Positions 6,350 to 46,181 of a stretch of 64,000 bases of DNA are shown in pieces. Both the position numbers and the translations under genes were made by a program. The stretch's first letter is position 1; each line of letters starts with the position of its first letter. The notes under the pieces are model-generated. The model was not told where the DNA came from and did no database searches. It saw only the letters and a list, made by a program, of their open reading frames with translations. Origin of the DNA: Acidimicrobiia bacterium (GTDB taxonomy: Bacteria; Actinomycetota; Acidimicrobiia; Spongiisociales; ZC4RG35); the NCBI GenBank assembly GCA_965203555.1, contig CBDBCY010000004.1, forward strand, positions 192,001 to 256,000, read 5' to 3'.

Positions 6350-6400
6350 CATGGAACCAAAGACAGCTATCGATAAATACAGAAATGGGGGTGTTTGGTT

Positions 6401-7591: not shown

Positions 7592-7656
7592 CCCCCCAAA
7601 CCCAAAGACTGACGCCAATAGCGCAAGAAGCCAGGACGTAAGAAAGAAAGCAACCG

Positions 7657-17432: not shown

Positions 17433-17545
17433 GGTTTTCTTTGCAGCCACCCAGGGCAAGGGTAATCAGTCCGACCGCCGGGAAGGCGCAAGAAACCCGG
17501 GAAGGGGGACCCGGGTGAGTCTGCGACCACGGTATCTTTCCGGGG

Positions 17546-19917: not shown

Positions 19918-19949
19918 AGTCTCCGCAATCACCTAGAAAGGGAGAAGGG

Positions 19950-20729: not shown

Positions 20730-20964
20730 TCATCCCCTAGACTTACCTGCAGGCTCCAACCTTCGGTTCTCAGTCTAGGAGCTAGACGAGGTCGAGGGCG
20801 TCCCACTGGCGGTCGGCCAGGCCTTCTTCCATCGCTGGGGTGTGCAAACTGAGCCACTACCCGGCCGAGCAGGGCAGGTATGATATTAGTGTGATTCTTA
20901 GGCTGATGTTATGACTTGTTGTGATGTGTTGCTGGCGCCGCATTTGGGTTCGTTTTGAGGTGAT

Positions 20965-23365
20965 GTGTTGGAGTTGTCTGAGGGCTTGGTGACGGAGGGT
21001 GAAGCCGGTTTGCGGGAACGGCTTTATAGGTTGAGCCGGGCGAGTCTGCGTATTAATGAGAGTCTGGATTTTGATTCGGTGCTTCAGGGTGCTTTGGATT
21101 CGGCTTGTTCGTTGACTGGCGCCCGTTATGGGGTGATGGCTATGTTGGATGGCGGGGGGCGGGTGGGGGACTTTTTGTCGTCGGGATTGAGCGGTGAGCA
21201 GGCCGAACAGCTCTGGCAGACCCCCCAGAGGTGGGAAATATTCGAGCGTTTGGGCCGCGTGTCCGTACCTTTGCGTGTTCCTGACCTGGTGGGCCATGTG
21301 AGGTCTTTGGGGTTTGACGGGTTCCGTCTGCCCTTGGCGGGCGGGTCGGTGTGGCCGTTTTTGGCGTCGCCGATGTTCCATGGTACCGAGCGGGTAGGTA
21401 ATGTCTTTTTGGCCGGGCGGGTGGACGGGGCCGAGTTCAGCGGGGAGGACGAGCAGACTCTGGTGATGTTCGCTTCTCAGGCGGCGTTGGTGATTGCTAA
21501 CGCCCGGCGGCATCTTGAAGAGCGGCGGGCCCGGGCCGCCTTGGAGACGCTGATCGATACTTCTCCGGTGGGTGTGGTGGTGTTCGATGCCGTGTCCGGA
21601 GCGCCTAAGTCTTTCAATCGGGAAGCGCGGAGGATCGCGGACAGCCTGGCGGACTCCGATCAGTCTCCTGAGATGCTCTTGGACGTGATCACCTGCAGGC
21701 GGGCCGATGGGCGGGAGGTTTCCTTGCGGGAGTTTCCGTTGGCCGAGTTGCTGAGCGCGGGGGAGACGCTGCGGGCCGAGGAGATTGTCTTGGCGGTTCC
21801 CGACGGGCGCTGTGTCACGGTGCTGTTAAACGCGACGCCGATCTTCTCCGATGCGGGCGAGGTGGAGTCGGCGGTGGTGACGCTCCAGGACATGGCCGAC
21901 GTGGAGGAGTTGGAGCGCCTACGGGCCGAGTTTTTGGCCATGGTCAGCCACGAGTTGCGGGCGCCCTTGACCTCCATCAAGGGTTCCACTGCCACGGTGC
22001 TGGATTCGCCCGTGGACCTGGACCCGGCCGTGGTCCGCCAGTTTTTCCGTATCATTTCCGAGCAGGCCGATCACATGCACGGCCTGGTGTCCGATCTCCT
22101 GGACGTAGCTCGGATCGAGACGGGCACGCTGGCGGTCGGTCCCGAACCGGCGGAGGTGGCCATGCTGGTGGAGCGGGCGAGGCGTGCTTTCACGGGTGGT
22201 GGGGGCCGGAACGACCTGGCCATCGACATCGAGCCCGGTCTTCCGCTGGTGATGGCGGACCGGCGGCGAATCCTCCAGGTGCTGGTCAACCTGCTGACCA
22301 ACGCGGCCCGCCACTCCCCGCGGCCGTCGGTCATCACGATAACCGCCACCCGCGACGGGACACATGTGGCCGTCTCGGTAGTCGACGAGGGGCGGGGCAT
22401 CCCGGCCGAGAGCCTGCCCGGTTTGTTCCGGAAGTTCTCCGCGGCGAAGTCCGAGGAACCGGGCGGGGACACCGGGCTGGGCCTGGCGATCTGCAGAGGG
22501 ATAGTAGAGGCCCACGGGGGACGCATCTGGGCCGAGAGCGACGGCCCGGACCTCGGCGCCCGTTTCACCTTCACCCTGCCCACAGTGGAACCAACCAGCG
22601 GCGCAACAGCCGGTGCTCGCCCGCCGTCATCGAGGCGCTTGTCCCGCGGGCAGCAAGAGACGGGAGAAGGGGTGCGGGTACTGGCGGTGGACGACGACCC
22701 CAGAGACCTCCGGTACGTCCAGGACACCCTCATCCAGTCGGGATACGCTCCCACGGTAACCGGGGACCCCGAGGAAGCGCTCCGTCTCATGGAAGAGGAC
22801 CGGCCCCGGCTGGTGCTGCTGGACCTCATGCTCCCCGGGACAGACGGCATCAAGCTGATGGGAGAGATCCTGAACACCGCGGACGTGCCGGTCATCTTCC
22901 TCTCCGCCTACGGCAGGGACGACCTCATCGCCGAAGCTCTCAACAAAGGCGCCTCCGACTACGTCCTCAAGCCCTTCTCGCCAACAGAGCTGACAGCAAG
23001 AATCGGAGCGGCCCTCCGCCGCAGCGCCCGTCCCCGAGCCCCTGGAGCCATACCAACTGGGCGACCTGACCATCAACTACCCCGAACGCAGAGTGACCCT
23101 AGCCGACCGGCCCGTGCACCTCCTCCCAATGGAATACCGAATGCTCACCGCGCTCTCGACCAGCGCCGGACGGGTACTCACCTACAAACAACTGCTAAAC
23201 CGAGTGTGGGAGGACAAAGAAAGCCGCGACCTGCGACCCATGCGCACCATTGTCCGCAAACTCCGACAAAAACTAAACGACGACGCCCGCAACCCCACCT
23301 ACATCTTCACCGAACCCCGCGTCGGCTACCGAATGCCAAAAGGAGAGAAAAGAAAAACGCACTGA
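20965..23365 (+). CDS. Cytoplasmic hybrid regulator GAF-PAS-HisKA-HATPase-REC-winged helix (frameshift near 23028)
   Basis: SHELRAPLT, NLLTNAARH, DEGRGI, GTGLGL-like box, LLDLMLP/KPF receiver; OmpR-type C-domain (YIFTEPRVGY) continues in the +1 frame after one extra C at 23027-23029. Confidence 0.85.
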
Positions 23366-23389
23366 CCCAGTCAGATAACCCTGCGATGA

Positions 23390-23573
23390 GGTTCTGCTCA
23401 TATTTTGCGGACCGTGGCGGCGAACTTGTCCGCGACTGGGTGCGGGCACTATCCAACCACTCGTCTTCTGTGATCTCTCCACGCTTAGCAGCGCCGGCGA
23501 GAATCCGCCTCGTTGGCCCTGCCGCCGTTCACTCCTGTCTACATGCCTACCAGCATGCAAAGATGGTGTGACA
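23390..23573 (-). pseudogene. Internally deleted remnant of a DUF222/HNH element
   Basis: 23395-23515 aligns by eye with 33121-33240 (RILAGAAKRGEITEDEWLDSARTQS.DKFAATVRK vs RILAGANQRGTIVEDELLDGARSQSPDKFAVMVRK); 23542-23573 matches the promoter/ATG at 33561-33591. Confidence 0.75.
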
Positions 23574-23635
23574 CCCCAACCCCACACCCCAACCTGTGAA
23601 AAAGACGCTAGCCGGCCAAGCCTGCGGCAGACATG

Positions 23636-24436
23636 CTAAGCCGAGGAGTTCCGGCCCAGGCGCCTCTCGCCGGCGTAGACCACCATCTCCTCGCCCCGTA
23701 CGAACCCGGCCAGGGTGAGTCCCACCTCTTCGGCGAGATCGGCCGCCAGGGTGGAGGCGGCGGAAATCCCGGCCACCACGGGGATGCCGGCCACGGCCGC
23801 CTTCTGAGTTATCTCGAAAGAGATCCTGCCGGAGACCATCAGGATCAACTCGCCCAACGGCCATCTCCTCCGAGCCATGGCGCCCACCGCCTTGTCCACC
23901 GCGTTGTGGCGACCCACGTCCTCGGCGATGGCCAGCAACTCCCCGGCGGCATTGAACAAGCCGGCCGCGTGGGACCCTCCGGTGGCGGCGAAGGACTCTT
24001 GGGCGCTGCGCAAGCGATCGGGAAGGACGGTGATCGTCCTTCTGGTCAGTTCCGGTCCCGACGGGAGAGGGCGGGAACTGATCAGGACCGCATCGATGGA
24101 GGCTTTTCCGCACACCCCGCAGGATGAAGAGGTGTAAGTATTCCGCCGGAATTGCTCAGGATCGATGCTCACCCCCGGCGCCAACTCCAACTCGTACCGG
24201 TCGCCCGACCCGATGGACCGGACACCGGCCACCTCCGCGGGACGGTCGACTATCCCCTCGGTGATGGCAAACCCCAGCGCCAGATCCTCCTCCTGGCCGG
24301 GCGTCCTCATCATCACCGCGATGGGTACTCCCGCCAACCGGATCTCCATGGGGGATTCCTCCACCAACCGGTCCCTTACCCGATGGGTGAGGAGGGGGCC
24401 GACTTTCAACACCTGGCGTCCACTGAGGCGCGACAT
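23636..24436 (-). CDS. fdhD: Formate dehydrogenase accessory sulfurtransferase FdhD
   Basis: MMRTPG, SSSCGVCGK, TGGSHAA, EDVGRHNAVDK. Confidence 0.95.
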   Translation of the reverse strand: MSRLSGRQVLKVGPLLTHRVRDRLVEESPMEIRLAGVPIAVMMRTPGQEEDLALGFAITEGIVDRPAEVAGVRSIGSGDRYELELAPGVSIDPEQFRRNTYTSSSCGVCGKASIDAVLISSRPLPSGPELTRRTITVLPDRLRSAQESFAATGGSHAAGLFNAAGELLAIAEDVGRHNAVDKAVGAMARRRWPLGELILMVSGRISFEITQKAAVAGIPVVAGISAASTLAADLAEEVGLTLAGFVRGEEMVVYAGERRLGRNSSA

Positions 24437-24504
24437 GTAAGTCAACATTAGGAGGTCGGCCAAAAGGTTTCTTTATTTGTGCCTGTCATGCGACAATTAG
24501 AAAG

Positions 24505-25588
24505 ATGCGAGTAGACAATTTCGGCGCCGGCCCGTGCACCCTCCCCCTGTCCATTCTCGAAGAGGCCCGAGCGGAGTTCTTGGACTTTGCGGGCAGCGGG
24601 ATGTCCATCCTGGAACTCAGCCACCGTTCCGCCTTCTATGAGACCGTCCACGAGGAGGCGCTGTCCCTGGCGAGGGAGGTGTCGGGCGCGCCGGATGACT
24701 TCGAAGTGCTGGTGATCGCGGGCGGGGCCACCATGCAATTCGCCATGATCCCGGCCAATTTGCTGTCGGAGCGCGGCAGCAGGGGCGGCTATTTGAGGAC
24801 CGGCACCTGGGGTCGGTTGGCCCTGGCGGATGCCGGGCGATGGGGCGACGCCTACTGTGCCTGGGACGGGGAGCCCCACGGGTACCGGAGGATGCCCGAC
24901 GTTGACGAAATCCACGTCCAGCCAGATACCCGGTTCTTGCATGTGACCTCCAACGAGACCATAGGCGGGATAAGGATGCCGGAGATACCCGCCGTCGGCG
25001 TGCCTTTGGTGTGTGACGTCTCCTCGGACTTCATGGCCCGGCCCATCCCATGGGAACTCTGCGACCTGGTGTACGGGGGGGTGCAGAAGAACCTTGCCCC
25101 GGCCGGGATGGGGTTGGTGTTCGTACGGCACCGCGTCCTGGAGAGTCTGACCGGTTCGCTACCCCGGTTTTTCGACTATCGCTGGTATGCCGACAAGGGT
25201 TCGACGGGCAACACCCCGCCCGTTCTACCGATTTACATGATGGGCAAGATGCTCAAACTATTGCGCGATCTGGGTGGAGTGAAGGGGTTGGAAGAGCGCA
25301 CCGCCCAAAAGGCTCGCCTGATCTACGATGTCATCGACCGAAGCGACGGCTACTACCACAGCCCGGTGGATCCGAGGCACCGTTCTCACACCAACGTGGT
25401 GTTCCGACTGCCCACACCCGAGGCAGAGTTTGCAGTTTGTCGGCCAAGCCGCCGCGGCGGGCCTGGTGGGACTGAAGGGTCATAGATCGGTGGGTGGCTG
25501 TCGGGCCAGCCTGTACGCCGGTTTGGAGCTGCGCAGCGCCGCCAGGCTGGCTTCCTTCATGAGCGAATTTCGGGCAGACAACTCCTGA
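24505..25588 (+). CDS. serC: Phosphoserine aminotransferase (frameshift near 25430)
   Basis: NFGAGP, SILELSHRS, NETIGG, QKNLAPAG, NTPP; C-terminal GLKGHRSVGGCRASLY lies in the +1 frame after an extra T at 25429-25431. Confidence 0.9.
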
Positions 25589-25667
25589 ACCGAGGGAAAA
25601 CTTCACCGAAGACCTAGGTGCAAGACCGGGGCTAGACTTAGACCCGTCTAGGAGAGAGCGCGTCCGT

Positions 25668-26183
25668 ATGAGCAAAACCGACACGATGCCCAAGCTCACT
25701 GTGGCCGAAAGGCTGCGAGATCTACTTGGCCCGTACCTTGAGGCCGAGTGTTTGGAGCTGGACGACCTCCAATTGCTGGGAGGTGGAGGAGCTCGGGTAT
25801 TGCGGGTGGTGGTGGACGGCGAGGGCGGGGTTACCCTCGACCGTCTGGCCGAAACTTCCCGTCGGCTGTCGAGGTTGTTGGACGCAGACGCCCAGATGCA
25901 GGGTCCCTACCGGCTGGAAGTGACGTCCCCCGGTTTGGAACGGAGTCTCAGAACGGCCCGTCATTTCCAAAAGTCGGTTGATCGGGAGGTGGTGATGAAG
26001 GTCCGCACCGATGCGGGGGTGCGCAGCCTCCGGGGACAGTTGGCCTCCGCCGACCGTCACGGGTGTGAAATCTCGGCGGAGGGTGATCTCCAATGGTTTC
26101 CCTACGGTGACGTCCTTTCGGCCCGCACCGTCTTCCGATGGCAGGCCGCGCCCAAGCCCGGCAAAGGCAAGGTGAAGTCATGA
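25668..26183 (+). CDS. rimP: Ribosome maturation factor RimP
   Basis: LRVVVD, YRLEVTSPGLERSL; upstream of nusA. Confidence 0.93.
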   Translation: MSKTDTMPKLTVAERLRDLLGPYLEAECLELDDLQLLGGGGARVLRVVVDGEGGVTLDRLAETSRRLSRLLDADAQMQGPYRLEVTSPGLERSLRTARHFQKSVDREVVMKVRTDAGVRSLRGQLASADRHGCEISAEGDLQWFPYGDVLSARTVFRWQAAPKPGKGKVKS

Positions 26184-27283
26184 AGATCGATTATCAGGTC
26201 ATGGAGGCGCTGGAGCTATTGGAGAGAGAACGCGGGGTGCCGGTCGAGACGATCCTGGATGCCCTGGCCAACGCTCTGGTGTCCGCCTACAAGCGCACTT
26301 CGGGCAGAGCCGAGGAGGCGCGGGTAACCATCGATCCCGATGCCGGGGACATACGAGTCTTCGGTCAGATCCTGGATGAGGAAGGCGCCGTGGTCAGAGA
26401 GTGGGAGGACAAGTCCCAGGAGTTCGGCCGCATAGCCGCCCAAACCGCCAAGCAGGTGATAGCTCAACGGCTGCGGATCGCCAAGCGTGAACAGATCTAT
26501 GCCGCCTACGCCGGAAGGGAGGGCGATCTGGTCACCGGTATCGTGCAACAGGTCGACGGGCGGTATGTCATCTTCGATCTGGGTAACGCCGAGGCGCTCA
26601 TGCCGGCCTCCGAGCGCATTCCCCATCAGATGCTGGACCGGGGCAATCGGGCCAAGGCCCTCATACTGGAAGTCAAGAACGAGCCCAAGGGACCCCAGAT
26701 CATTCTCAGTCGTTCCCATCCTGATCTGGTGCGCCGACTGCTGGAATTGGAAGTGCCCGAACTGGTGGAAGGCGTGGTGGAGATAGTGGCGATCGCCCGC
26801 GAGCCCGGTCACCGGACCAAGATCGCGGTGGTCTCTCACGATCCCAACGTCGATCCCCGCGGCGCCTGCGTGGGCGCCAGAGGTTCCCGCGTTCAGCAGG
26901 TAGTCAAAGAACTGCGGAACGAGAAGGTGGATGTCGTCCAGTACCAGGAGGACGTGGCTGCTTTCATCGCCGACGCCTTGGGGCCGGCCCGGATTCGCGA
27001 GGTGAGGATCAACGAAGAGGAAAAGAGCGCCGAGGTTATCGTTTCCGAGCACCAGCTTTCCCTGGCGATCGGCAAGGAAGGCCAGAATGCCCGCCTGGCC
27101 GCCCGCCTGACCGGATACCGGATCGACATTCGTTCTGATGAACCGCCTCCCTCTCCGGGAGCGGGCGCCGGGGGACGCCCACCGATGTCCCGACCGGTTT
27201 CGGGAGGTCGACCGAGGACCGCTCCCAGGCCTGACGGTCGTTCCATGCCCAGGAGTCCAGGTTCGCAAGCTGCCTCTTCCTGA
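26180..27283 (+). CDS. nusA: Transcription factor NusA
   Basis: FGRIAAQTAKQV, SRSHP, AREPGHRTKIAV, LSLAIGKEGQNARLAARLTG. Confidence 0.97.
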   Translation: MKIDYQVMEALELLERERGVPVETILDALANALVSAYKRTSGRAEEARVTIDPDAGDIRVFGQILDEEGAVVREWEDKSQEFGRIAAQTAKQVIAQRLRIAKREQIYAAYAGREGDLVTGIVQQVDGRYVIFDLGNAEALMPASERIPHQMLDRGNRAKALILEVKNEPKGPQIILSRSHPDLVRRLLELEVPELVEGVVEIVAIAREPGHRTKIAVVSHDPNVDPRGACVGARGSRVQQVVKELRNEKVDVVQYQEDVAAFIADALGPARIREVRINEEEKSAEVIVSEHQLSLAIGKEGQNARLAARLTGYRIDIRSDEPPPSPGAGAGGRPPMSRPVSGGRPRTAPRPDGRSMPRSPGSQAASS

Positions 27284-27307
27284 CCGGGGTTTGGGTCTCG
27301 GTGCGCT

Positions 27308-29362
27308 ATGACTAGGGTCAGGATTTATCAGATTGCCCGTGATCTGGGTTTGACCACCCAGGAGGTGCTGAACCAGGCCACCGCCATTGGTTTGACGGTG
27401 AAGGCCGCTTCCTCCACCATTTCCAACGAGGAAGCCGAGTTGGTGCGCTTCGCCTTGGTGGGGGAGCAGAAGGAGGAAAGGAAGCCTAAGCCCGAGCCGG
27501 TCCGGAAGCCGCCTTCCGCCAAGCCTGTAGCCCACCGAGAGCCGGAACCGGCGCCGCCGGTTGTCGAGGAGGATCCGCCGTCGCAGTCTGAAGAGGATGA
27601 CCGGGTGGTTGAGGTTCCCGAGACGGCGTTGGTTCTCGAGTACGCCGAAGCGATCGGGGTTCCGGTAGGCGAGGTGGTGGCAAAGTTGATCGGCCTGGGA
27701 GAGATGGTGGGCGCCGGTCAGCGTATGCCACGGGAGACGATGGAGGATGTGGGGGAGAGTTTCGGAGTGCTGGTGGAGGTGATCAGGTCCGAGCCCGAGC
27801 GAGGCCCGGTGGTGAGGTTGCGGGATGTCCCCGACGACAATCCGAAGGACCTGGTGGAACGGCCTCCGATCGTCACCGTGATGGGCCACGTCGATCATGG
27901 GAAGACCACCCTGCTCGATGCTCTGCGCCGCACCGATGTGGTGTCGGGTGAGGCGGGTGGAATCACCCAGCACATCGGGGCCTACCAGGCCACGGTGGCG
28001 GGGAACCGGATCACTTTCATCGACACCCCTGGTCATGAGGCGTTCACGACCCTGCGGGCAAGAGGGGCGGAAATCACCGACATAGTGGTCCTGGTGATCG
28101 CGGCGGATGATGGAGTCATGCCCCAGACGGTCGAGGCGATCAGCCACGCCCGGGCCGCGGGGGTCGACATGCTGGTGGCCATCAACAAGATCGACCGCCT
28201 CGGGGCCGATCCGGTGGCGGTCAGGGCCAAGCTCACCGAGCAGAATGTCATCACCGAGGAACTGGGGGGCGATGTGCCCAGCGTGGAGATTTCCGCCACC
28301 AGGGGCGACGGTTTGGACGATCTGTTGGAGACCCTCGACCTGATGGCGCAGATCAAGGAACTGAAAGCCTCTCCCAAGCCGCTTGCCTCGGGGGTGGTGG
28401 TGGACTCGCGACTCGACCACGGCATGGGACCGGTGGCCACCGTAATCGTCCAGCGGGGCACTCTACGGCGGGGCAGCGCCCTGGTGGCCGGGGCGGTGTC
28501 GGGGCGGGTGAGAGCCATGTTCAACCATGCGGGGAAGAGAGTCAACGCCGCAGGTCCGTCGGCGCCGGTGCTGGTAATGGGTTGGAGCGAGGCGCCCGAG
28601 GCGGGAGAGGGATTCGAGGTGGTCAAGAACGAGCGCCTGGCGAGGCGCATGGCTTCGGATCAGGCCGACCTTGATCGGGAGACTCGGATCAGGGCGGAGA
28701 TGCCCACCGCACGGGACCGTTTCGTGCAGCACCTCGAGCAGTTGCAGTCCACCGAGGGTGAACTGCGGCTGATCGTCAAAGGCGACTTGCAGGGGTCGGT
28801 GGAGACCCTCCGCGAGGCGATCGGCAAGATCAAGCGAGAGAAGGGACGGATCTCCATCGTTCACTCGGCGGTGGGGGGGATCAACCTCAACGACGTCAAT
28901 CTCAGTGACGTCACGGGGGCCGTGATCGTGGGTTTCAATGTCCGGGCGGAGAGCAAAGCGGCCCGCGAGGCTCGACAGCGCGGGATAGAGATGCGCTCTT
29001 ACTCGGTGATCTACGAGTTGTTGGACGATGTCGAGCAGATGATGGTGGGCAAGCTCGCTCCTGAACGACACGAGGAGATTCTGGGAACGGCCGAGGTTCG
29101 GGCCCTTTTCCGGGTCCCCAGAGCCATGGCGGCGGGTTGTTTCGTGAAGGAGGGCCGGATCGTGCAGGGCGCCGACGTACGCCTGTACCGCGACGATGTG
29201 GTGATCTACACGGGTACCGTGGCTTCGCTGCGCAGGTTCAAGCAGGATGTGGATGAGGTGCCCTTCGGCCTTGAATGCGGAATAGTCCTGGAGCGTTACA
29301 ACGATGTGAAGGAAGGGGACCTGATCGAGGCTTTCACGGTTAGGGAGGTCATGCCCACCTGA
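27308..29362 (+). CDS. infB: Translation initiation factor IF-2
   Basis: MGHVDHGKTTLLD, GGITQHIGAY, DTPGHEAF, NKID. Confidence 0.98.
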   Translation: MTRVRIYQIARDLGLTTQEVLNQATAIGLTVKAASSTISNEEAELVRFALVGEQKEERKPKPEPVRKPPSAKPVAHREPEPAPPVVEEDPPSQSEEDDRVVEVPETALVLEYAEAIGVPVGEVVAKLIGLGEMVGAGQRMPRETMEDVGESFGVLVEVIRSEPERGPVVRLRDVPDDNPKDLVERPPIVTVMGHVDHGKTTLLDALRRTDVVSGEAGGITQHIGAYQATVAGNRITFIDTPGHEAFTTLRARGAEITDIVVLVIAADDGVMPQTVEAISHARAAGVDMLVAINKIDRLGADPVAVRAKLTEQNVITEELGGDVPSVEISATRGDGLDDLLETLDLMAQIKELKASPKPLASGVVVDSRLDHGMGPVATVIVQRGTLRRGSALVAGAVSGRVRAMFNHAGKRVNAAGPSAPVLVMGWSEAPEAGEGFEVVKNERLARRMASDQADLDRETRIRAEMPTARDRFVQHLEQLQSTEGELRLIVKGDLQGSVETLREAIGKIKREKGRISIVHSAVGGINLNDVNLSDVTGAVIVGFNVRAESKAAREARQRGIEMRSYSVIYELLDDVEQMMVGKLAPERHEEILGTAEVRALFRVPRAMAAGCFVKEGRIVQGADVRLYRDDVVIYTGTVASLRRFKQDVDEVPFGLECGIVLERYNDVKEGDLIEAFTVREVMPT

Positions 29363-29667
29363 TGGAGGCGGCGGCAATGCGCTTTGAATTATCGCTTCCC
29401 GCCACCCGGTCGCTGAAGGAGAAACGCTCGGTGCTGCGGCCGGTAGTGGAGGGTCTACGGAGGATGTCCTCCTATTCGGTGGCGGAGGTCGATCATCATG
29501 ATCTGTGGCGTCGCGCCGGATTGGGAGTGGCGGTGGTAGCCGTCAACCGCCGAGAGTTGGAGAAGATGATCCACAAGGTTGAGAGGTATCTTGACGCCAA
29601 GCACGAGGTGGATGTGATGCGGGTCTTGATTTCCTACCTGGATCATCCCGAACCAAGGGACCGATGA
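29362..29667 (+). CDS. DUF503 (YlxP-like) protein
   Basis: SLKEKRSVLR, SVAEVDHHDLWRRA; between infB and rbfA. Confidence 0.85.
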   Translation: MEAAAMRFELSLPATRSLKEKRSVLRPVVEGLRRMSSYSVAEVDHHDLWRRAGLGVAVVAVNRRELEKMIHKVERYLDAKHEVDVMRVLISYLDHPEPRDR

Positions 29668-29670
29668 CAG

Positions 29671-30036
29671 ATGCAAAGCGGCCGCTTTCCCCGCATGAGG
29701 CGGGTCAACTCGATCATCTGGGAGGTTTTGGCTGATGAAGTGCACCTTCTTTCGGATCCCCGGTTGGGTTCGGTGACGATCACCGGCGTGGACACTTCTC
29801 CGGACCTGCGGCGGGCGGTCGTGTTCTATTCGGTGGCGGACATGTCCCGCCTCGAGGAGGTCGGGGACGGCCTGAACTCTGCCGCCGGACGTCTGCAGGG
29901 GCGCCTGGCTTCCCAGGTGCGACTCAAGTACACGCCCCGACTCAACTTTCAGCCCGACCAGGGGGTGATCGGCGGGCAGAGAATCGAGAGCCTGCTCAGA
30001 AAATCCCCCAGGCTCGGTCTGGGAGGTGAGAGGTGA
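29671..30036 (+). CDS. rbfA: Ribosome-binding factor A
   Basis: DPRLGSVTITGV..SPDL, RLKYTPRLNF. Confidence 0.93.
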   Translation: MQSGRFPRMRRVNSIIWEVLADEVHLLSDPRLGSVTITGVDTSPDLRRAVVFYSVADMSRLEEVGDGLNSAAGRLQGRLASQVRLKYTPRLNFQPDQGVIGGQRIESLLRKSPRLGLGGER

Positions 30037-31013
30037 ATCGACCGGAGGACCTTGACGGGGCCATCCGGGGCGCGGCGCAGGTGATCCGGACTTCCGAATC
30101 GCTGGGAGCGGTCTGCCATGAACGTCCGGACGGGGACGCGCTGGGTTCCATGCTGGGTTTTGCTGTCTCGGCCCACCTGGCCGGCCGGGAGGTGGCTGTG
30201 GCGGTGCCTCCGCCGGGTGATTTGCCCAGCCGGTACCGGTTCCTTCCCACCGGTCCGCTTTCGTCGGGCCTGGACTCCCAGGATCCGCCGGAGACGCTGG
30301 TTGCCTTTGATTGCGCCGCCCTCGACCGGTTGGGGGAGTTGGCGCCGATGGCGGAGCAGGTGCGGAACCTGGTGGTGGTGGACCATCACATCTCCAATCC
30401 TGGGTTCGGAACGCTCAACCTGGTGGACCCCCGGGCGGCCGCCACTGTCGAGTTGGTCTATGAACTGCTCCTGGAGTTGGGTTGGCCCATCGACGCGGTG
30501 GCGGCCACGTGTCTTTTGACCGGGCTGGTAACAGACACGGGGAGGTTCCAGTATTCGAACACCACTCCTCGAACCCATCGGATCGCGGCCCGGCTACTGG
30601 AAGCGGGCGCCCGCTCGGAAGTGATCGGGCAGGCGGTTTACGAGGAGGAGCCGTTCGGATTGTTGTCCGTGGCTGCGGCGGTGTTGGGCCGCGCCCGCCT
30701 GGACGCCGAGAGGGGAGTGGTCTGGTCTGTTCTGTATCCGGGGGATCTGGAGGCTGCCTCTATCAACGGCGAGGACACCGAATTGTTGATCGATCTGGTT
30801 CGCCTGCCCCGTGAGGCCCATGTGGCGATGCTGGTCCGGGAGGCGCCCGATCACGGGGTGCGGGTCAGTATGCGTTCCCGGGGGAAGGTGGATGTCGGCG
30901 CCCTGGCCGCTTCCCTGGGCGGAGGGGGACATCGCAATGCCAGTGGCTTCCGGTTCGATGGCGATCCCGGCGGGGCGGTGGCGGCGGTCCTGGAGAGAAT
31001 CCCACTTGCCTGA
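30033..31013 (+). CDS. nrnA: DHH/DHHA1 oligoribonuclease / pAp phosphatase
   Basis: HERPDGDALGS, VDHH, TDTGRF, GGGGH. Confidence 0.9.
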   Translation: MNRPEDLDGAIRGAAQVIRTSESLGAVCHERPDGDALGSMLGFAVSAHLAGREVAVAVPPPGDLPSRYRFLPTGPLSSGLDSQDPPETLVAFDCAALDRLGELAPMAEQVRNLVVVDHHISNPGFGTLNLVDPRAAATVELVYELLLELGWPIDAVAATCLLTGLVTDTGRFQYSNTTPRTHRIAARLLEAGARSEVIGQAVYEEEPFGLLSVAAAVLGRARLDAERGVVWSVLYPGDLEAASINGEDTELLIDLVRLPREAHVAMLVREAPDHGVRVSMRSRGKVDVGALAASLGGGGHRNASGFRFDGDPGGAVAAVLERIPLA

Positions 31014-31890
31014 AGGCTTTCTGGTGATCGACAAGCCCTCGGGCGTCACCTCCCATGACATGGTGGCGGCGGTTCGCAAGGCCGTGGGGATCCGCCGGGT
31101 GGGCCACGCCGGGACGCTGGATCCCATGGCCACCGGCGCCCTGGTGGTGGCGGTGGGCAGAGTCACCAGACTGATCCGCTTCATCCAACCGCTTGCCAAG
31201 GAATATGTTGCACTGGCCCGGTTCGGGGTGGCGACCGACACCTTGGACGCCGACGGCCGGAAGACCTGGGCCGAAGAGATGCCGGTGCGGCGCAGCGAGG
31301 TGGAGTCGGCGCTTTCTTCCTTCGTGGGACAGATTGAGCAGGTACCTCCGATGGTGTCGGCGATCAAAGTGGAGGGGCGGCGTCTGTACGAGTTGGCGCG
31401 TCAGGGTGTGCAGGTGGAGAGGGCGGCCCGGAGAGTGACCGTCCATTCCCTGCAACTCACCAGCTTCAGACCGGGACCCCACCCCCTGGTGGGGTTGCGG
31501 GTGGTTTGCGGAAAGGGTGTCTATGTGCGCAGTCTGGCCGACGACATCGCCCGGACCCTGGGAGGGCGCGCCCACCTCACCGCCTTGCGACGGATCAGGG
31601 TGGGGAGCCTGGCAGTGGGGGAGGACCCGGCCGGCGGTCGGGGACCCGCAGACCTTGCGGAATGGAAGAGGTGGATCCTTTCACCTTCCGAGGGCCTGCG
31701 CGATCTGGCGGGCTGGACGGTCTCCGACCCGGCGCTGGAAATGGTCAAAAACGGAAGGCGCCTGCCCGCGCATCAACGGTCCGATCCGGACGAAGACCAG
31801 CCGGTCCGCGTTCTGGATGCTGAAGGCAGGTTATGGGCCGTCTATCGCCGCCGAGGGTCGCTAATGATTCCAGAAGTAGTTCTCAACTAG
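31006..31890 (+). CDS. truB: tRNA pseudouridine(55) synthase
   Basis: DKPSGVTSHD, VGHAGTLDPMATG, QVPPMVSAIK, GVYVRSL; TTG start at 31006 with GGAGA RBS. Confidence 0.95.
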   Translation: MPEGFLVIDKPSGVTSHDMVAAVRKAVGIRRVGHAGTLDPMATGALVVAVGRVTRLIRFIQPLAKEYVALARFGVATDTLDADGRKTWAEEMPVRRSEVESALSSFVGQIEQVPPMVSAIKVEGRRLYELARQGVQVERAARRVTVHSLQLTSFRPGPHPLVGLRVVCGKGVYVRSLADDIARTLGGRAHLTALRRIRVGSLAVGEDPAGGRGPADLAEWKRWILSPSEGLRDLAGWTVSDPALEMVKNGRRLPAHQRSDPDEDQPVRVLDAEGRLWAVYRRRGSLMIPEVVLN

Positions 31891-31892
31891 GG

Positions 31893-32312
31893 CCGGGCTT
31901 TCCCACTGATCGTGGAGGGTTGGTTGGTGGGTTTTGGTAGTTGATGGGGCTGGTCATGTCGAGGTGGAGTGGAGTCGGTGGTGGTTGCAGCAGGTGTGGA
32001 TCCAGTTGGCGATGTCCTGTCGGGCCTGGGTTCTGGTGACGTACCGGCGGTCGACGAGGCGTTCTGTCTGCAGGGGTGGAGAAAACGACTCGGCCGCGGG
32101 GCTGTCCAACGCTGAGCCTGCTCTTCCCATGGACTGGACGATCCCCAGCCGGGTGCAGGCCTTGACGAAGGCGTGGCGGTGTGTTGTCTGCCGCGGTCGG
32201 TGTGGAAGATCACTTTCCGTACGGTGCCGCCGCGGGTGCCCACGGCCATGTTGATAGCGGCCTGGGCCAACTCGGCGGTGGGATAGTTGTCGCTTGGATC
32301 GAATCCCAGCAT
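31893..32312 (-). mobile_element. IS3-family transposase (OrfB) C-terminal remnant, frameshifted
   Basis: VIFHTDRG then shifted QSMGRAGSALDSPAAESF...NHHRLHS integrase-core motifs. Confidence 0.8.
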
Positions 32313-32339
32313 GCACCGGATACGGGGGAACTCTAAACT

Positions 32340-33563
32340 CTATTGTCTTTGTTTTATGGGCTGTCGGCGTTTGCGGGTGGGTGGGCGGCGGTAGCGGTTG
32401 GGGGTACGGCGGGGTGGGTTCCAGTCGGTGGTTGGTGGGCGGCGGAGGGTGTACGTTCCGGTGGGAGTTCTGTGTACTGTCCAATCCTGGTCGTGTACTT
32501 TGTGGTGGCATCTGCTGCACAGAAGACACATGTTGTCCAGGTTGGTGGGGCCCCGATCTTGCCAGTGGACGATGTGGTGGGCCTGGCACCAGGAGGCTTT
32601 GGCGCCGCAACCGATGCAGTGTTTGTCGCGGGCGACGAGGGCGGCCCGTTGGGAACCGCTGGCTGTCCGTCGGGCTCGTCCCAAATCCAGCGGCACCGAC
32701 GAACCTGAGAATATGGCGGGGAGTATCTGAGCGTCGCAGGCCAACTGGCGCAGGGTACGGGCAGGCAGGGGGGTTCCGTTCTCGAGGCGAGGGTTGCCCA
32801 ACTGTTTGCTGATCGTGTCGTAGTCGGCGATCAACAACAGCCTCACGCCCTGGGAACCGCCATCTTCTCCTTCCCGAGTGAGGAGCTTGGCTATGGCGTC
32901 GGCCATCCGCTGACCCGCAGTAGCCCGATCGGTGGGGTCTTCTTGGTGCCATAGTTGTTTCATCATGTGAGACACCGCCGTCTCGACCCGGGCACCGGTG
33001 ACCGGGTCGAAACGCCCATACAACACGGTCATCCCGTCGTCTTGGCCGGTGGTGATCTTCGCGAACCGCCGGGACCGCTGATGCTCCAACCTCGACACAC
33101 CATCATCCTCTGAACGCTTCTGTTCGTGTTTGCGTACCATGACCGCGAACTTGTCAGGAGACTGGGAACGGGCACCGTCCAACAACTCGTCCTCGACGAT
33201 GGTTCCCCTCTGGTTAGCGCCCGCCAAAATACGCACGTTGTCAGCAGAGATCTCTCCCTTTTGGAAACCCTCCCTCGTTTTGGGCAGTTCCTCCAACCCC
33301 CGGGCGGTCTCCACCTCAGACCGGGCCTTCCGACGGCCCAACAGCCCGTCCTCCCGCAAAATCGTCTCCACCTGCTCTGTTCCCTGGCGGCGGCGCAACT
33401 CCGACACCGCCTGGGCGCGGACCGCCGCCACCTGGTTCTGGACGCGGATGGTGGACTGTATACGCTGTTTCAGCTCTTCAACCGACGCCTCAACGACCGG
33501 GATGGTGGGTGACAGGAGCTTGGCCAGGTTGACGGACCGCCGACTGTCGACTGCTTGTTTCAT
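32340..33563 (-). CDS. DUF222 + HNH endonuclease (13E12-repeat-like element protein)
   Basis: RQLACDA, LDLGR..R, RDKHC..C, CQAHHIVHWQDRGPTNLDNMCLLCSRCHHKVH; likely leaderless ATG 33563. Confidence 0.88.
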   Translation of the reverse strand: MKQAVDSRRSVNLAKLLSPTIPVVEASVEELKQRIQSTIRVQNQVAAVRAQAVSELRRRQGTEQVETILREDGLLGRRKARSEVETARGLEELPKTREGFQKGEISADNVRILAGANQRGTIVEDELLDGARSQSPDKFAVMVRKHEQKRSEDDGVSRLEHQRSRRFAKITTGQDDGMTVLYGRFDPVTGARVETAVSHMMKQLWHQEDPTDRATAGQRMADAIAKLLTREGEDGGSQGVRLLLIADYDTISKQLGNPRLENGTPLPARTLRQLACDAQILPAIFSGSSVPLDLGRARRTASGSQRAALVARDKHCIGCGAKASWCQAHHIVHWQDRGPTNLDNMCLLCSRCHHKVHDQDWTVHRTPTGTYTLRRPPTTDWNPPRRTPNRYRRPPTRKRRQPIKQRQ

Positions 33564-33569
33564 GCTTAC

Positions 33570-33591
33570 AGTATGCACAGGGGGTGTGACA
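33570..33591 (-). promoter_or_regulatory. PafBC/RecA-NDp-like promoter of the HNH gene
   Basis: Minus strand TGTCAC-N10-CATACT-N6-ATG; spacing equals TGTCGG-N10-TANNNT; same layout retained at 23552-23573. Confidence 0.5.
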
Positions 33592-33713
33592 AAACATCAC
33601 CAAGTTGTGAAAACAAACACTAAAACTTTCGCAACGTCCAACTCCGCCCTCACCCGCGGCGCCTCCACAATGTGAACACGCCTTAGAGGTCTCCCCGGGG
33701 AGCGCCCACGACC

Positions 33714-33729
33714 ATTCCACATGTGGAAT
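33714..33729. repeat. Perfect 16-bp palindrome ATTCCACATGTGGAAT
   Basis: Self-complementary sequence near the upstream edge of the HNH element. Confidence 0.8.
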
Positions 33730-33757
33730 TGTGTTTTGTCAGGCCGAGGAAGGAGGC

Positions 33758-33796
33758 CGGGTAGTCAGAGTGGCCTGGTGGATTTCTGACTACCCG
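33758..33796 (-). terminator. Stem-loop downstream of the uracil permease gene
   Basis: 12-bp stem CGGGTAGTCAGA/TCTGACTACCCG. Confidence 0.5.
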
Positions 33797-33834
33797 AACA
33801 GGATGAAAAGATTCTTCGCTCGGATATTTCCTAT

Positions 33835-44897: not shown

Positions 44898-45026
44898 CCC
44901 ATCAGATGTCCACAGATTCCGGGGGGAAGAGCCCTATCTCGCAACTCCGAAGGGCTTCCGGCACCCGTTCCCAGCAACAGGAGCGGCGGTGTTCGATGAC
45001 TGCACCTCGGGTATGTGGGTGACCGT

Positions 45027-46181
45027 TCAGGCCGCGTCATATATGAAGTACTCTGCGGGCAGTTCTATGATTGTTTGCCGCTCTCCCGATTGCGTGTCGA
45101 TGGACATGATGACCTCGTCTTGGCCCATCACCCCGGTGGCAACTATTAGGAGGTTGTCCACCATGCCTAGCGGTGTTACGGATTCGCCTTCCTCGTTGTC
45201 GTGCAGCCATCGCAGGGTGTGGTTTGAAAGGTCGGCCATATAGACCGCTTTCCCGATTGTGTACGGAGGGTTCGCCGGATCGGGTGCGTTGTAGACGAGC
45301 AACAGTTGATCCGTATAACGTCCCGGGGCGTTCCCTATCGCCACCGGGATGGGGGGCAGAACACTCAGTGTCCAGCGGCCCGACTCGAACGCAGTAAACC
45401 GGTCGGTTTGCCCGGTGGTCACGTCATAGAGGACCAGATGTCTACCGTCATCACTGAGGCAAGCAATGTTGTGTTCGTGCACAGACACCAAATGTAGGTT
45501 TCCGTTGTCTATGTCGTCTGGGCACGTCGCTACTTCATTGATGGCGATGGCGCCGGTGCTTGTCAGCACCAGATCATCCCGGCCGTCATCGTCAATCACA
45601 ATAAGGTCGTTGTCCAACGACCTGCGCGCGTAATAGGAGCCATTCAGGTCGAAACTGGCCACTACGGTCCCTTCTTTGGTGATCAGGTCTACTAGCGTGG
45701 CGACACCGGTCCGCTTCAACACCCATATGTTCCCTCCGGACTGATCCTCCAGGGCATCGACACCATTACCCACAATGTCACCTCGATCAGTGTCGGCTCC
45801 GACGGAGCGGCGCAGGCGAATGGTCGAAGGTGCGGCGGAAAAGTCCCCTCCAGGCACCACGTACAGGACTTGCTCACCGGACGGATGAACCAACACATCG
45901 CCCGACCTGGTGAACGCTGCCACATCAACCGAACTGACCGGCAGGCCACGATGCTCCAGCCGGGACAGTCTCATCACACCCTCTGCCAAGTCAACCACCG
46001 CAACTCCACCCTGATGATTCAGAGCCAGCACCCGGAAATCCACCGGATCACCTTCCCACTCAAGGTCCACGACACGGGAATGAAAGAACCCGATCTGCCA
46101 CCCAATCAACAACCCAACCGCGACGATAGGCAGCAGAATCCACCAGCGCCGGCGCCACGCTCTCGCTTTATTTTGCGTCAT
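45027..46181 (-). CDS. Membrane-anchored exported protein, paralogue A (beta-rich)
   Basis: N-terminal RRRWW+TM anchor; shares FRVLA.N, VAAFTR.GDVL, HLV.YDV.TGQ, AVY.ADLS, YFIYDA with the neighbouring gene. Confidence 0.7.
   Translation of the reverse strand: MTQNKARAWRRRWWILLPIVAVGLLIGWQIGFFHSRVVDLEWEGDPVDFRVLALNHQGGVAVVDLAEGVMRLSRLEHRGLPVSSVDVAAFTRSGDVLVHPSGEQVLYVVPGGDFSAAPSTIRLRRSVGADTDRGDIVGNGVDALEDQSGGNIWVLKRTGVATLVDLITKEGTVVASFDLNGSYYARRSLDNDLIVIDDDGRDDLVLTSTGAIAINEVATCPDDIDNGNLHLVSVHEHNIACLSDDGRHLVLYDVTTGQTDRFTAFESGRWTLSVLPPIPVAIGNAPGRYTDQLLLVYNAPDPANPPYTIGKAVYMADLSNHTLRWLHDNEEGESVTPLGMVDNLLIVATGVMGQDEVIMSIDTQSGERQTIIELPAEYFIYDAA

Follow-up and report, generated by a model that had tools for sequence, protein, structure and literature searches.

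Repeated and mobile genes of a sponge-associated actinobacterium carry a keto-to-amino gradient at silent sites

In a sponge-associated actinobacterium (Acidimicrobiia bacterium, metagenome-derived assembly GCA_965203555.1), repeated and mobile genes carry a silent-site gradient in which every strand is G+T-rich at its start and A+C-rich at its finish. The bias at silent sites keeps within the homology unit, with an amplitude that does not change with unit length between 0.6 and 5 kb, and it is strongest where gene conversion keeps copies identical. No published description of such a gradient was found, and a general keto-to-amino rule for recombining DNA is new here. The pattern appears best read as strand-asymmetric biased gene conversion, plausibly through the enzyme NucS, which would see only G/T, G/G and T/T mismatches.

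When the third-position keto indicator is regressed on position in the 2063 genes with 200 codons or more (own gene calls), third-codon G+T falls from 5' to 3' in 122 genes (t<-3) and rises in six (t>+3). The asymmetry persists under a stronger cut (46 genes with t<-5 versus one with the opposite trend), and two genes have a reversed gradient with t=+5.6 and +4.2. The skew is not lost at fourfold sites; on these alone 85 genes fall with t<-3 and four rise with t>+3, with about 2.8 per tail expected by chance. The other 1937 genes are flat (+0.02 to -0.01). Nor are gradients equally frequent in single-copy genes: t<-3 is found in 69 of 202 repeat genes versus 53 of 1861 unique genes (odds ratio 17.7), which bears out the enrichment in multicopy or mobile DNA expected in the initial annotation. 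Since an element's identical copies cannot be counted as independent, a family-level count stands beside the gene-level one; ten out of forty-five protein families with at least three members have a median t<=-3 and none has one at >=+3, and among 1626 singletons 54 have a falling gradient versus five rising. The gradient does not mark multicopy DNA per se, because 53 unique genes, including R-M, SNF2, SLH and Fic genes, also carry it and the kinases that do so are just ~67% identical. Most carrier genes have open frames and full domain sets, an exception being a frameshifted kinase described below. HNH and transposase gradients are also found in genomes G002, G013, G016 and G020, and kinase gradients in five other genomes.

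The window analysed here (64,000 nucleotides of contig CBDBCY010000004.1) contains 37 long genes, of which the four named in the initial annotation, tuf (t=-4.2), the hybrid kinase (-8.4), the DUF222-HNH gene (-6.0) and 'paralogue A' (-4.8), are the sole ones with t<-3. A recount reproduces its four 60-base counts exactly: on the top strand, 48/60 G+T at 20941-21000 and 43/60 A+C at 23281-23340 (left and right ends of the kinase), and 49/60 G+T at 32341-32400 and 41/60 A+C at 33601-33660 (left and right ends of the HNH gene). Under a null set by the keto fraction of the whole window (0.519), the binomial tails are 6e-6 for at least 48/60, 1.5e-6 for at least 49/60, 1.9e-4 for at most 17/60 and 1.2e-3 for at most 19/60, in a window of overdispersed composition where 371 of 63,941 60-base windows hold at least 48 G+T, most of them within tuf.

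The hybrid sensor kinase-regulator gene (20900..23365, + strand) matches the Pfam series GAF-PAS-HisKA-HATPase-REC and an OmpR-type winged helix, the latter in a shifted frame; tblastn with a paralogue places the frameshift between 23028 and 23036, where the match passes from frame 2 to frame 3. Its gradient spans the entire unit (t4=-5.9), with a third-position keto skew per 100 codons of +0.56, +0.50, +0.36, +0.20, +0.08, -0.24 and -0.36, and the top-strand skew goes from +0.54 at 20900 to -0.36 at 23200, with background beyond. The three kinases are mutually ~67% identical in DNA, and among twenty kinases of the same family and genus nine have the gradient and eleven have none. The DUF222-HNH repeat unit (32341..33687, - strand; Pfam DUF222 and HNH) is one of 26 genome copies, with limits of 32341 to 33643-33687 set from 28 blastn hits. 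Its third-position keto skew in its own direction is +0.16, +0.18, -0.06, -0.58 and -0.69, so that the top strand is keto-rich on the left and amino-rich on the right, and t<-3 holds for 23 of the 26 family members. Just left of it lies a putative 3'-end remnant of an IS3-type transposase (31900..32330, - strand), identified by a weak match to rve_3 that misses the Pfam cut-off (E=5.6e-4, 20 bits versus 26.5) and including a low-copy repeat at 32002-32317; its coding strand is A+C-rich and its top strand therefore G+T-rich (67/81 at 31910-31990). Paralogue A, a 362-codon gene (45026..46164, - strand) delimited by blastn and the skew profile, shows the same gradient, with 184/271 A+C at its right end (45880-46150) and one copy, 83.6% identical, just past the window end.

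Along all these carriers the axis is keto/amino (G,T versus A,C), neither GC/AT nor purine/pyrimidine. Five-bin fourfold profiles are monotonic with position in the HNH, IS, kinase and unique classes, and the end-to-end changes d(G-C)/d(T-A) are 0.50/0.16 for IS, 0.44/0.20 for HNH, 0.52/0.34 for kinases and 0.35/0.14 for unique genes. The purine fraction in IS moves from 0.59 to 0.42 along the unit at fourfold sites. GC4 dips by 0.05-0.14 only, standing at 0.65-0.79 along carriers versus 0.77-0.79 elsewhere, and AT content is hardly raised; in the kinases, GC4 runs 0.69, 0.79, 0.79, 0.75, 0.65, with T4 at 0.27 at the 5' end and A4 at 0.22 at the 3' end. The initial annotation had attributed the skew to C>T and A>G deamination. 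Since transitions alter the G-C skew as much as the T-A skew and leave purine content unchanged, these two changes alone are insufficient for a pattern in which G-for-C exchange dominates. Nor is the gradient built up by young private substitutions (counted in families with median t<=-2), whose amino>keto:keto>amino ratios by quarter are 121:119, 183:148, 225:151 and 168:126.

The extreme case is tuf, of which the window holds the second of two repeat units (6381..7605, + strand; EF-Tu domains), the other copy following fusA outside it. G or T occupies 97% of its third positions (A3 0.003, C3 0.013) and all Leu codons are TTG; the gene turns A+C-rich in its final ~8 codons and 3' flank. The two copies, which stand in the classical str-operon and tRNA-tuf contexts, are 100% identical in their coding parts and differ solely by a 2-base indel after the stop, and the EF-Tu protein is 94-98% identical between species of the genus. 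Directly upstream on the same strand, fusA has a keto3 of 0.00 versus 0.97 in tuf, with its final ~44 codons, outside the repeat, mildly keto-rich (+0.36), and ribosomal protein genes near tuf have keto3 ~0. In eleven other species of the genus tuf keto3 is 0.95-0.98, and in eleven the A+C-rich tract after tuf is kept in kind. In a survey of Acidimicrobiia covering 40 of 79 listed tuf places, fourteen genomes with two equal-scoring copies have a median keto3 of 0.575 (at least 0.29 in thirteen), versus -0.21 to -0.03 in three genomes with two diverged copies and -0.09, -0.22 and -0.13 for single-copy tuf in assemblies of at most four contigs. The tuf twins of G013, G016 and G020 are 99.9-100% identical, with keto3 of 0.72-0.89.

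Genes with internal duplications show where the gradient begins and ends. Three doubled binding-protein genes have fourfold skews of -0.15, +0.18 and +0.07 in their unique 5' parts versus +0.58, +0.51 and +0.62 in their repeat units, and within one reading frame the skew falls at the end of unit 1 and begins anew at unit 2. These units are 99.6-100% identical within the genome, the protein being 93-97% identical between genomes, and the doubled gene is also skewed in ten other genomes; single-unit orthologues of a doubled gene in G002 (a one-contig genome) and G009 retain full skew. Similarly, an IS21 element runs from +0.3 to -0.3 across istA and istB, returning to background at both ends, and in unique gradient genes the skew is limited to the reading frame (flanks ~0). 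Relative slopes by length class from 200 to 2000 codons are -0.74, -0.81, -0.62, -0.77 and -0.58. Because polarity follows the repeat or homology unit and not the transcript, the recombination- or mobility-coupled origin first put forward in the initial annotation stands as the best reading.

Its companion statements, that neither gene direction nor replichore explains the polarity, need revision. The former does not follow, as a keto-to-amino gradient is its own reverse complement and therefore looks identical on the top strand whichever way the gene points; the kinase and HNH genes both show it in their own 5'-to-3' direction. As for the latter, the point at which the skew crosses zero in fixed repeats such as tuf and the doubled binding-protein genes is displaced by the replichore. 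The mean is ~+0.6 in tandem units that are co-oriented with the fork, and head-on units start at +0.5 and drop to -0.8, so that head-on doubled genes have the opposite mean coding-strand sign, which follows the fork and not the gene. Unique genes have keto3 of +0.051 when co-oriented versus -0.081 when head-on, the leading strand being G+T-richer, and the chromosome-wide skew switches at ~1.98 Mb and ~0.40 Mb. This leading-strand G+T excess explains the offset but leaves the sawtooth unaccounted for; replication-associated strand skew, which has a constant sign per replichore, was rejected because the sign flips inside single genes and repeat units.

We tentatively suggest, with rather less than even confidence, that homologous recombination has left the sawtooth behind as a scar, acting between copies that differ in sequence and share a homology stretch with definite bounds. 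Partner copies would be repeats within the genome or alleles from other cells, invaded by 3'-ended single strands. Left of the initiating lesion the heteroduplex would pair recipient top with donor bottom, and right of it donor top with recipient bottom. Heteroduplexes with NucS-cut mismatches (G/T, G/G, T/T) would be aborted, and A/C, C/C and A/A mismatches would survive and segregate at the next replication. With keto-keto pairings aborted and amino-amino ones surviving, conversion would be one-way on each side of the lesion, on the top strand amino-to-keto only to the left and keto-to-amino only to the right. Lesions spread evenly over the unit would yield a net drive proportional to (1 - 2y/L), linear, zero at the centre and alike on both strands. 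Were one fork direction to supply most invading ends, the crossing would shift to the fork-distal end, as in tuf and the doubled binding-protein genes, and frequent conversion could saturate the drive to a step, giving the G/T-only (NNK-type) codons of tuf.

This heteroduplex model leans, by analogy, on enzyme specificities from other actinobacteria. According to the accessible text of the reports, EndoMS/NucS cuts G/T, G/G and T/T only (PMC6159521), M. smegmatis NucS repairs these mismatches from single-strand oligos in vivo (PMC11551767), and NucS reduces homeologous recombination 3- to 10-fold, leaving homologous recombination unaffected (PMC5290159). That substrate set is the exact axis of the skew here, and the gene for this enzyme that counters homeologous recombination was found in the genome (95% complete), in which no MutS was found. 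The accessible text of the three papers mentions no compositional consequence for repeats; the link between NucS and repeat composition is one that we infer. Several observations count against the model. M. smegmatis NucS repair is reportedly independent of homologous recombination (accessible text of PMC11551767). The three kinases and 53 unique gradient genes have no partner in the genome, so that exchange with alleles in other cells would have to be assumed for them. Full skew in the single-unit orthologues, the keto-rich end of fusA and the two reversed genes likewise speak against it, as do IS21 elements of MutS-bearing bacteria, in which a weak gradient runs in the same direction (6/7 negative, t down to -4.4), and of NucS-bearing actinomycetes, two of five of which are without a gradient (Streptomyces -1.7, Rhodococcus +2.4). 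All fourteen twin-tuf genomes have NucS and thus lend the link no comparative support, and no clean NucS-less genome with homogenised tuf twins was found among the Acidimicrobiia genomes searched; G018 is without a NucS match but 85% complete, with NucS in two of six searched genomes of its genus and tuf keto3 of 0.06-0.62 within that genus.

The mechanism first proposed, in which recombination or transposition intermediates expose the 5'-proximal half of each strand and deamination (C>U, A>hypoxanthine) makes it keto-rich, is unlikely but deserves real weight. The exposed DNA would be retained 3' tails beside breaks inside the unit, or displaced strands, and for such breaks the observed polarity is predicted. 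It is also in line with raised T and lowered GC4 at both ends of the kinases, the lack of a detected endonuclease V gene in the genome, the ordinary same-sign replication skew of unique genes, and the keto-rich end of fusA, as resection leakage would yield. However, transitions can neither shift purine content nor push d(G-C) above d(T-A), and both are observed; tails should reach unique flanks, yet the skew is flat in the unique 5' parts of doubled genes and on either side of unique gradient genes. The genome has three UDG-family genes, the saturation of tuf would need rate ratios of 30-190 to 1 (from base frequencies), young private changes fail to recreate the gradient, and a fixed resection length would not give equal amplitude at 0.6 and 5 kb. 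A repeat-sensing mutator (a deaminase or alike) that defends the genome by attacking duplicated or foreign DNA, comparable to fungal repeat-induced point mutation, would suit the enrichment in IS elements, HNH repeats and genes of defence or accessory function, the extreme recoding of a duplicated housekeeping gene and a gradient strength that differs by lineage across Acidimicrobiia. We consider it improbable, given targets that apart from the window kinase mostly have open, domain-complete frames, an AT content that hardly rises, changes beyond transitions, the weak form in IS21 of unrelated phyla, and same-genus kinases with (9) and without (11) the gradient.

Replication geometry of the element itself, with forks or strand displacement from both ends making the 5' half of each strand the lagging-strand template after entry by replicative transposition or gap repair at insertion, would produce the correct polarity and put the crossing at the centre. 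IS elements make up many of the carriers, and chromosomal replication direction clearly modulates fixed repeats. This is nevertheless very improbable: because transposition is far rarer than chromosome replication, any trace it leaves should be tiny relative to replichore skew; the geometry is inapplicable to tuf, intragenic tandem units, kinases and R-M genes; and the gradient is, largely, equal in cut-and-paste elements, copy-out elements and non-mobile genes. We give equally little weight to selection on RNA or DNA, whereby G/U-only wobble positions keep abundant mRNA unstructured or C-rich, G-poor 3' ends load Rho. Cells typically contain large amounts of EF-Tu and solute-binding proteins, and the A+C-rich 3' tract of tuf, retained in kind in eleven species of the genus, may resemble a Rho utilisation site. 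Transposases and HNH genes do not encode abundant proteins, and the keto3 of ~0 in adjoining fusA and ribosomal protein genes, the unbiased unique 5' part and other boundaries within one mRNA, the opposite mean sign of head-on doubled genes and the coexistence in one genus of kinase paralogues with and without the gradient all speak against selection. Transcription asymmetry, by which the non-template strand is bared in bubbles or R-loops to a degree that declines along the gene, with antisense transcription from the 3' end, is scarcely credible even though the kinase and HNH gradients run in gene direction and the skew of unique gradient genes keeps to the reading frame; the gradient starts over at unit 2 within one frame and is missing in the 5' unique part (on which transcription-associated mutational asymmetry was rejected), the mean sign of doubled genes follows the fork, fusA and tuf adjoin on one strand yet differ by 0.97, and 1937 other genes are flat. 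Assemblers err at repeats and this assembly is metagenome-derived, but we put next to no faith in an artefact of sequencing, assembly or gene calling: independent assemblies agree on tuf in eleven other species of the genus and in other families, on the doubled gene in ten other genomes and on HNH, transposase and kinase gradients in further genomes, and one procedure gives tails of 122 versus 6.

Concerted evolution of tufA and tufB by gene conversion is known from the Salmonella/E. coli model, which shares with the present case two tuf copies identical within a genome and diverged between species. Here both tuf and the doubled binding-protein units are near-identical within the genome and diverged between species, but unlike in that model the converted block is nearly without silent-site A and C; we know of no such A/C loss in enterobacterial tuf genes. 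GC-biased gene conversion is a fixation bias from heteroduplex repair that acts on silent sites, is strongest under frequent recombination and can override codon preference. The process proposed here would likewise be a heteroduplex-born fixation bias on silent sites, but it is strand-specific, lies on the keto/amino axis and changes sign inside the unit, with GC4 at 0.72-0.79; G+C gain regardless of strand was rejected because GC4 is not raised and G and C move oppositely. Fungal repeat-induced point mutation resembles our case in targeting duplicated DNA and in a recoded duplicated gene, and differs from it in that frames here are mostly open, AT gain is little, changes go beyond C>T and there is polarity in the unit. 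Acting on high-identity duplicates only, it was rejected on account of the 53 unique genes and ~67%-identical kinases with gradients, and as C>T on both strands with AT gain and decay, on account of GC4 (0.65-0.79) and the open frames. Lobry (1996), Reyes (1998) and Faith and Pollock (2003) reportedly described replication strand skew and, in vertebrate mitochondrial DNA, gradients that follow single-strand time. In such skews the strand that stays single-stranded for longer has an excess of keto bases, and the gradients at fourfold sites are roughly linear. A position-dependent fourfold gradient and a replichore offset are present here too, but on the scale of genes and repeat units, with a sign flip inside the unit and changes beyond transitions; a mitochondrial-type deamination gradient (C>T, A>G only) was rejected since purine content shifts and d(G-C) exceeds d(T-A). 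In tuf the amplitude reaches 0.97, far exceeding the replichore offset (about +/-0.07).

Pfam assignment gives the gene contents of the region as proS, an unknown gene, a hybrid kinase (GAF-PAS-HisKA-HATPase-REC), fdhD, an aminotransferase, rimP, nusA, infB, DUF503, rbfA, a DHH phosphoesterase, truB, a weakly matching IS3-type remnant, a DUF222-HNH gene and a xanthine/uracil permease. The window has 62% G+C and a keto (G+T) fraction of 0.519 and belongs to an assembly, G000, of 3.42 Mb in four contigs, where it occupies C4:192001-256000; the closest public relatives that carry a name are metagenome-assembled genomes of Acidimicrobiia, and the sequencing runs that contain this stretch are labelled sponge metagenomes. 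As called, infB (window 27308-29362) has only 671-684 codons, and its true start may be further upstream.

The initial annotation described elements that are keto-rich at the left end and amino-rich (A+C) at the right end. Its six base counts were all reproduced exactly, and the four genes it named are exactly those that stand out in the window by per-gene regression. The extreme 60-base windows it quoted have binomial tails of 1.5e-6 to 1.2e-3, in a composition that is overdispersed (at least 48/60 keto in 371 of 63,941 windows, mostly within tuf). Its argument that the polarity holds whichever way the gene points has no power of exclusion: a gradient from keto at the 5' end to amino at the 3' end is its own reverse complement, so that independence of orientation is automatic and rules nothing out.

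The gradient is found at silent sites. In the kinase, the third-position keto skew per 100 codons runs +0.56, +0.50, +0.36, +0.20, +0.08, -0.24 and -0.36, and from 5' to 3' T3 falls from 0.27 to 0.05 and G3 from 0.51 to 0.27 while C3 rises from 0.16 to 0.51 and A3 from 0.06 to 0.17. Along its own reading direction, the HNH gene gives +0.16, +0.18, -0.06, -0.58 and -0.69. Third-position variation is much smaller in proS, infB and the permease, with no steep monotonic drop.

For the whole genome, 2744 genes were called with a purpose-made codon-usage caller (83% coding), and in the 2063 genes with 200 codons or more a third-position keto indicator was regressed on codon position; negative values of the slope statistic t denote a keto-rich 5' end and an amino-rich 3' end. 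We find t<-3 in 122 of the 2063 genes versus t>+3 in six, and t<-5 in 46 versus one in the opposite direction. At fourfold-degenerate sites, where the initial annotation allowed that the trend might vanish, it persists (85 versus 4 genes past |t|=3, with about 2.8 expected per tail); the remaining 1937 genes are flat. The proposed enrichment in multicopy DNA is borne out as well: of the 202 genes with more than half their length in DNA-level repeats (self-blastn matches of 300 bp or longer), 69 have t<-3, versus 53 of 1861 unique genes (odds ratio 17.7), and t>+3 occurs in none of the 202 repeat genes and in six of the 1861 unique genes. Because identical copies of one element are not independent, the counts were repeated at the family level, where the median t is -3 or lower in 10 of the 45 families with at least three members and t is -3 or lower in 54 of 1626 singletons.

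The carriers (t<-3) include 23 of 26 DUF222-HNH genes, transposases of the IS21, IS110, IS630, ISL3, IS4-like and IS5/IS1182 types, three hybrid kinases, SLH surface proteins, type I restriction hsdM and hsdR, SNF2/PLD helicases and one Fic protein. Two genes are significantly reversed, from amino to keto: G000:C4:1006524-1008188 (t=+5.6), which has no Pfam match, and C4:2761742-2764429 (t=+4.2), a DUF1156 methyltransferase-like gene within a defence island. We further note that contig C3 (20.7 kb) is an inverted copy of C4:2095529-2116363, 92.6-97.8% identical, whose genes are without gradient and which probably represents a strain variant or haplotig, not a true repeat.

The gradient is a property of a unit, not of a transcript. 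In the IS21 element (2.29 kb, eight copies), the skew passes from about +0.3 to -0.3 over istA and istB together, and the background is restored at the element ends. In about nine lipoprotein genes a solute-binding unit of about 300 residues is tandemly doubled in frame, the two units being 86-100% identical and the domain confirmed by Pfam in the three scanned: G000:C4:757862-760402, 1073213-1075414, 1196610-1198787, 1533647-1535896, 1710576-1712591, 2036360-2038603, 2276660-2278771 and 2313949-2315982, and G000:C1:24784-26835. In three of these doubled genes the fourfold skew of the unique 5' part is -0.15, +0.18 and +0.07, versus +0.58, +0.51 and +0.62 in the units themselves; this skew drops at the end of unit 1 and begins afresh at unit 2. 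For one doubled gene, other genomes of the genus have a single unit. Amplitude is independent of length, the relative slope being -0.74 to -0.58 across 200 to 2000 codons. In IS and HNH genes the skew runs about 100 bases past the reading frame and is then gone, and unique carriers have no skew in their flanks.

Replication direction sets an offset of the gradient. On C4 the cumulative GC skew puts the replication origin at around 1.98 Mb and the terminus at around 0.40 Mb. Among doubled genes, those that run with the fork have a mean of about +0.6 per unit, and those head-on to it start at +0.2 to +0.5 and end at -0.3 to -0.8; plotted along fork travel, both orientations are alike and cross zero close to the distal end. 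In unique genes the ordinary replication offset alone is seen (+0.051 versus -0.081), and that of HNH copies is no larger. As to the bases exchanged, the end-to-end change in G-C skew exceeds that in T-A skew by a factor of about 1.5 in the kinases and of two to three in the other three classes; purine content shifts along carriers, and GC4 dips by only 0.05-0.14. The pattern is thus not one of transitions alone.

The extreme case is tuf. G000 has only two EF-Tu genes, one at window 6401-7591 and the other after fusA; the repeat unit spans 6381-7605, and the copies differ by a single 2-base indel past the stop. The base fractions at third positions are A 0.003, C 0.014, G 0.58 and T 0.40, all leucine codons are TTG, and over roughly the final eight codons and into the flank the bias turns to A+C. 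Expression level was rejected as the cause, since the third-position keto skew (keto3) of fusA and of about 40 genes in the ribosomal region next to tuf is -0.12 to +0.30. In 11 other species of the genus tuf keto3 is 0.95-0.98, and in three other families of the order it is 0.72-0.89 with twin copies 99.9-100% identical.

A class-wide survey covered 70 other genomes and G000, with 40 of 79 listed tuf places retrieved; twin status was judged from equal scores, and identity was measured for G000, G013, G016, G018, G020 and G092. The 14 genomes with two equal-scoring copies have a median keto3 of 0.575 (at least 0.29 in 13 of 14). Keto3 is -0.21 to -0.03 in three genomes with two diverged copies, -0.09, -0.22 and -0.13 in three with a single copy in an assembly of at most four contigs, and -0.14 to 0.01 in seven without a NucS hit, all single-copy. 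Five more apparently single tuf genes with keto3 of 0.23-0.76 come from assemblies of 50-130 contigs, in which twin collapse is possible. Arranged by copy state, the survey shows that keto saturation of tuf tracks ongoing homogenisation of the copies. Genome G092 suggests that the enrichment may decay once the copies have diverged. A third tuf in the Acidimicrobiia genome G013 (C1:16-1227), C-rich with keto3 of -0.43 and 71% protein identity, lies on a 1.2-kb contig and looks like contamination from another organism. Downstream of tuf (window 7566-7700, and the flank of the other copy) lies a C-/A-rich, G-poor tract, found likewise in 11 other species, which we take to resemble a Rho loading site.

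The gradient extends to other genomes of the class, where fragments and contig-end loci were excluded from the counts. In G002, 7 of 10 HNH copies have t of -3 or lower, and HNH-like genes in G020 have t of -7.0, -7.0 and +0.2; rve transposases give -8.6 in G013, -10.1 and -5.0 in G020, and -6.7 and -1.1 in G016. Neither HNH nor rve genes were found in G018. The kinase family is patchy (10 of 17 genomes of the genus, 50-61% protein identity). Excluding one partial copy, nine of its 20 copies have t of -6.7 or lower and the other 11 are flat (t from -2.3 to +0.8) and include four of near-identical length (793 codons), one from each of four genomes. As copies are both steep and flat, the gradient does not belong to the protein family as such and appears to accompany patchy, accessory copies. 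Among themselves, the three kinase copies of G000 share only about 67% DNA identity and thus are not recombining repeats at present. The window kinase has a frame break at 23028-23036, with paralogue residues 14-681 in frame 2 and 684-783 (an OmpR-type winged helix) in frame 3, and is either a frameshifted gene or an assembly error. Among public assembled contigs at 80% likeness to window 16500-36000, the kinase and HNH parts recruit those of numerous other organisms, with summed depth reaching 6560, and none of the contigs listed spans the kinase; one public run has 61 differences over 17990-21778 versus 12 over 23894-32161.

Negative controls were sought on plasmids. ISL3 transposases gave only three distant matches. 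For IS21, istA and istB together have t of -1.7, +2.4, -5.1, -3.8 and -6.8 in actinomycetes and -3.4, -3.2, -1.0, -4.4, -2.5, +0.5 and -1.1 in other phyla; the G000 element itself has -9.8. This control is not clean, with a weaker trend of the same sign in Proteobacteria and some actinomycetes (L172-L184), and a weak form of the gradient may therefore be general, at least for the IS21 family.

A mechanism for the gradient has to be bounded by homology, independent of unit length, strongest under concerted evolution, aligned with the keto/amino axis, and antisymmetric apart from a fork-determined offset. The initial annotation invoked deamination of exposed single-stranded ends. This predicts the same polarity and may contribute, as suggested by the GC4 dips at the kinase ends, the mildly keto-rich end of fusA and the absence of a match to endonuclease V. 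As the sole cause, however, it is at odds with the predominance of G-for-C exchange, the flat unique flanks, the independence of unit length and the saturation of tuf. Private-substitution spectra give a weak indication against young changes building the gradient; they are noisy, uncorrected for base content and drawn from families with median t of -2 or lower, and 900 of the 1609 events come from the HNH family.

We tentatively propose, as a possible though rather doubtful explanation, a strand-specific keto drive in actinobacteria that rely on NucS/EndoMS, in which blindness to A/C, C/C and A/A mismatches makes heteroduplex conversion one-way and, in any DNA recombining with a diverged partner, gradually rewrites silent and, in part, amino-acid sites. 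NucS is present in G000, and MutS was not detected there. In other actinobacteria, NucS is reported to cut only G/T, G/G and T/T mismatches (PMC6159521), to repair these in vivo when single strands are annealed (PMC11551767), and to suppress homeologous but not homologous recombination (PMC5290159). Under canonical recombination with invading 3' ends, the heteroduplex to the left of the initiating lesion would pair the recipient top strand with the donor bottom strand, and to the right the reverse. If keto-keto heteroduplexes were aborted and amino-amino ones survived, conversion would run one way, driving the top strand to keto on the left and to amino on the right. Averaging over lesion positions would yield a linear antisymmetric gradient, a surplus of ends from one fork direction would shift its zero crossing, and with frequent conversion the bias would saturate into a step of the kind seen in tuf and in doubled genes.

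We infer the heteroduplex and NucS steps of this keto drive, and the sequence holds no trace of heteroduplex processing. The proposal leaves unaccounted for the weak gradient in MutS-bearing hosts, the two reversed genes, the skew retained by single-unit orthologues of a doubled gene, and the kinase, restriction-modification, SNF2, SLH and Fic carriers that have no partner copy. G018 (tuf keto3 0.10-0.13, twins 99.5% identical, no NucS hit) was considered as a natural experiment in NucS loss and set aside, because NucS is found in two of six genomes searched in its genus, these are incomplete (72-93%) and their tuf keto3 ranges widely (0.06-0.62).

In the literature searched on skew, gene conversion, codon usage, tuf and transposases, with coverage outside subscription journals, no such gradient or G/T-only tuf is described. 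The pattern is related to known kinds of compositional asymmetry and to biased conversion; new here are the genome-wide rule, its scaling, the fork-dependent offset, the spread through the order, the class-wide link to homogenised twins and the NucS hypothesis. Should the sawtooth be a scar of recombination, it would offer a sequence-only readout of genes recombining with non-identical partners, in which the side of entry and the fork direction may also be readable. A keto drive, if real, would produce G/T-only (NNK-type) codons in duplicated housekeeping genes, mark mobile and exchanged genes with a polarity scar that can be read, and connect a signature in base composition with the restricted set of mismatches recognised by NucS. 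Strand-specific biased gene conversion would then join the known forces on codon usage, strong enough to beat translational selection in the cell's most expressed gene.

Methods based on codon usage will misclassify gradient genes as foreign, and tuf as a phylogenetic marker is subject to convergent silent-site and amino-acid changes in keto-rich lineages. Gene finders face stop-free antisense frames opposite keto-rich genes; the antisense strand of keto-rich tuf, for example, has one such frame (as at loci L207, L216 and L218) that is likely to mislead them.
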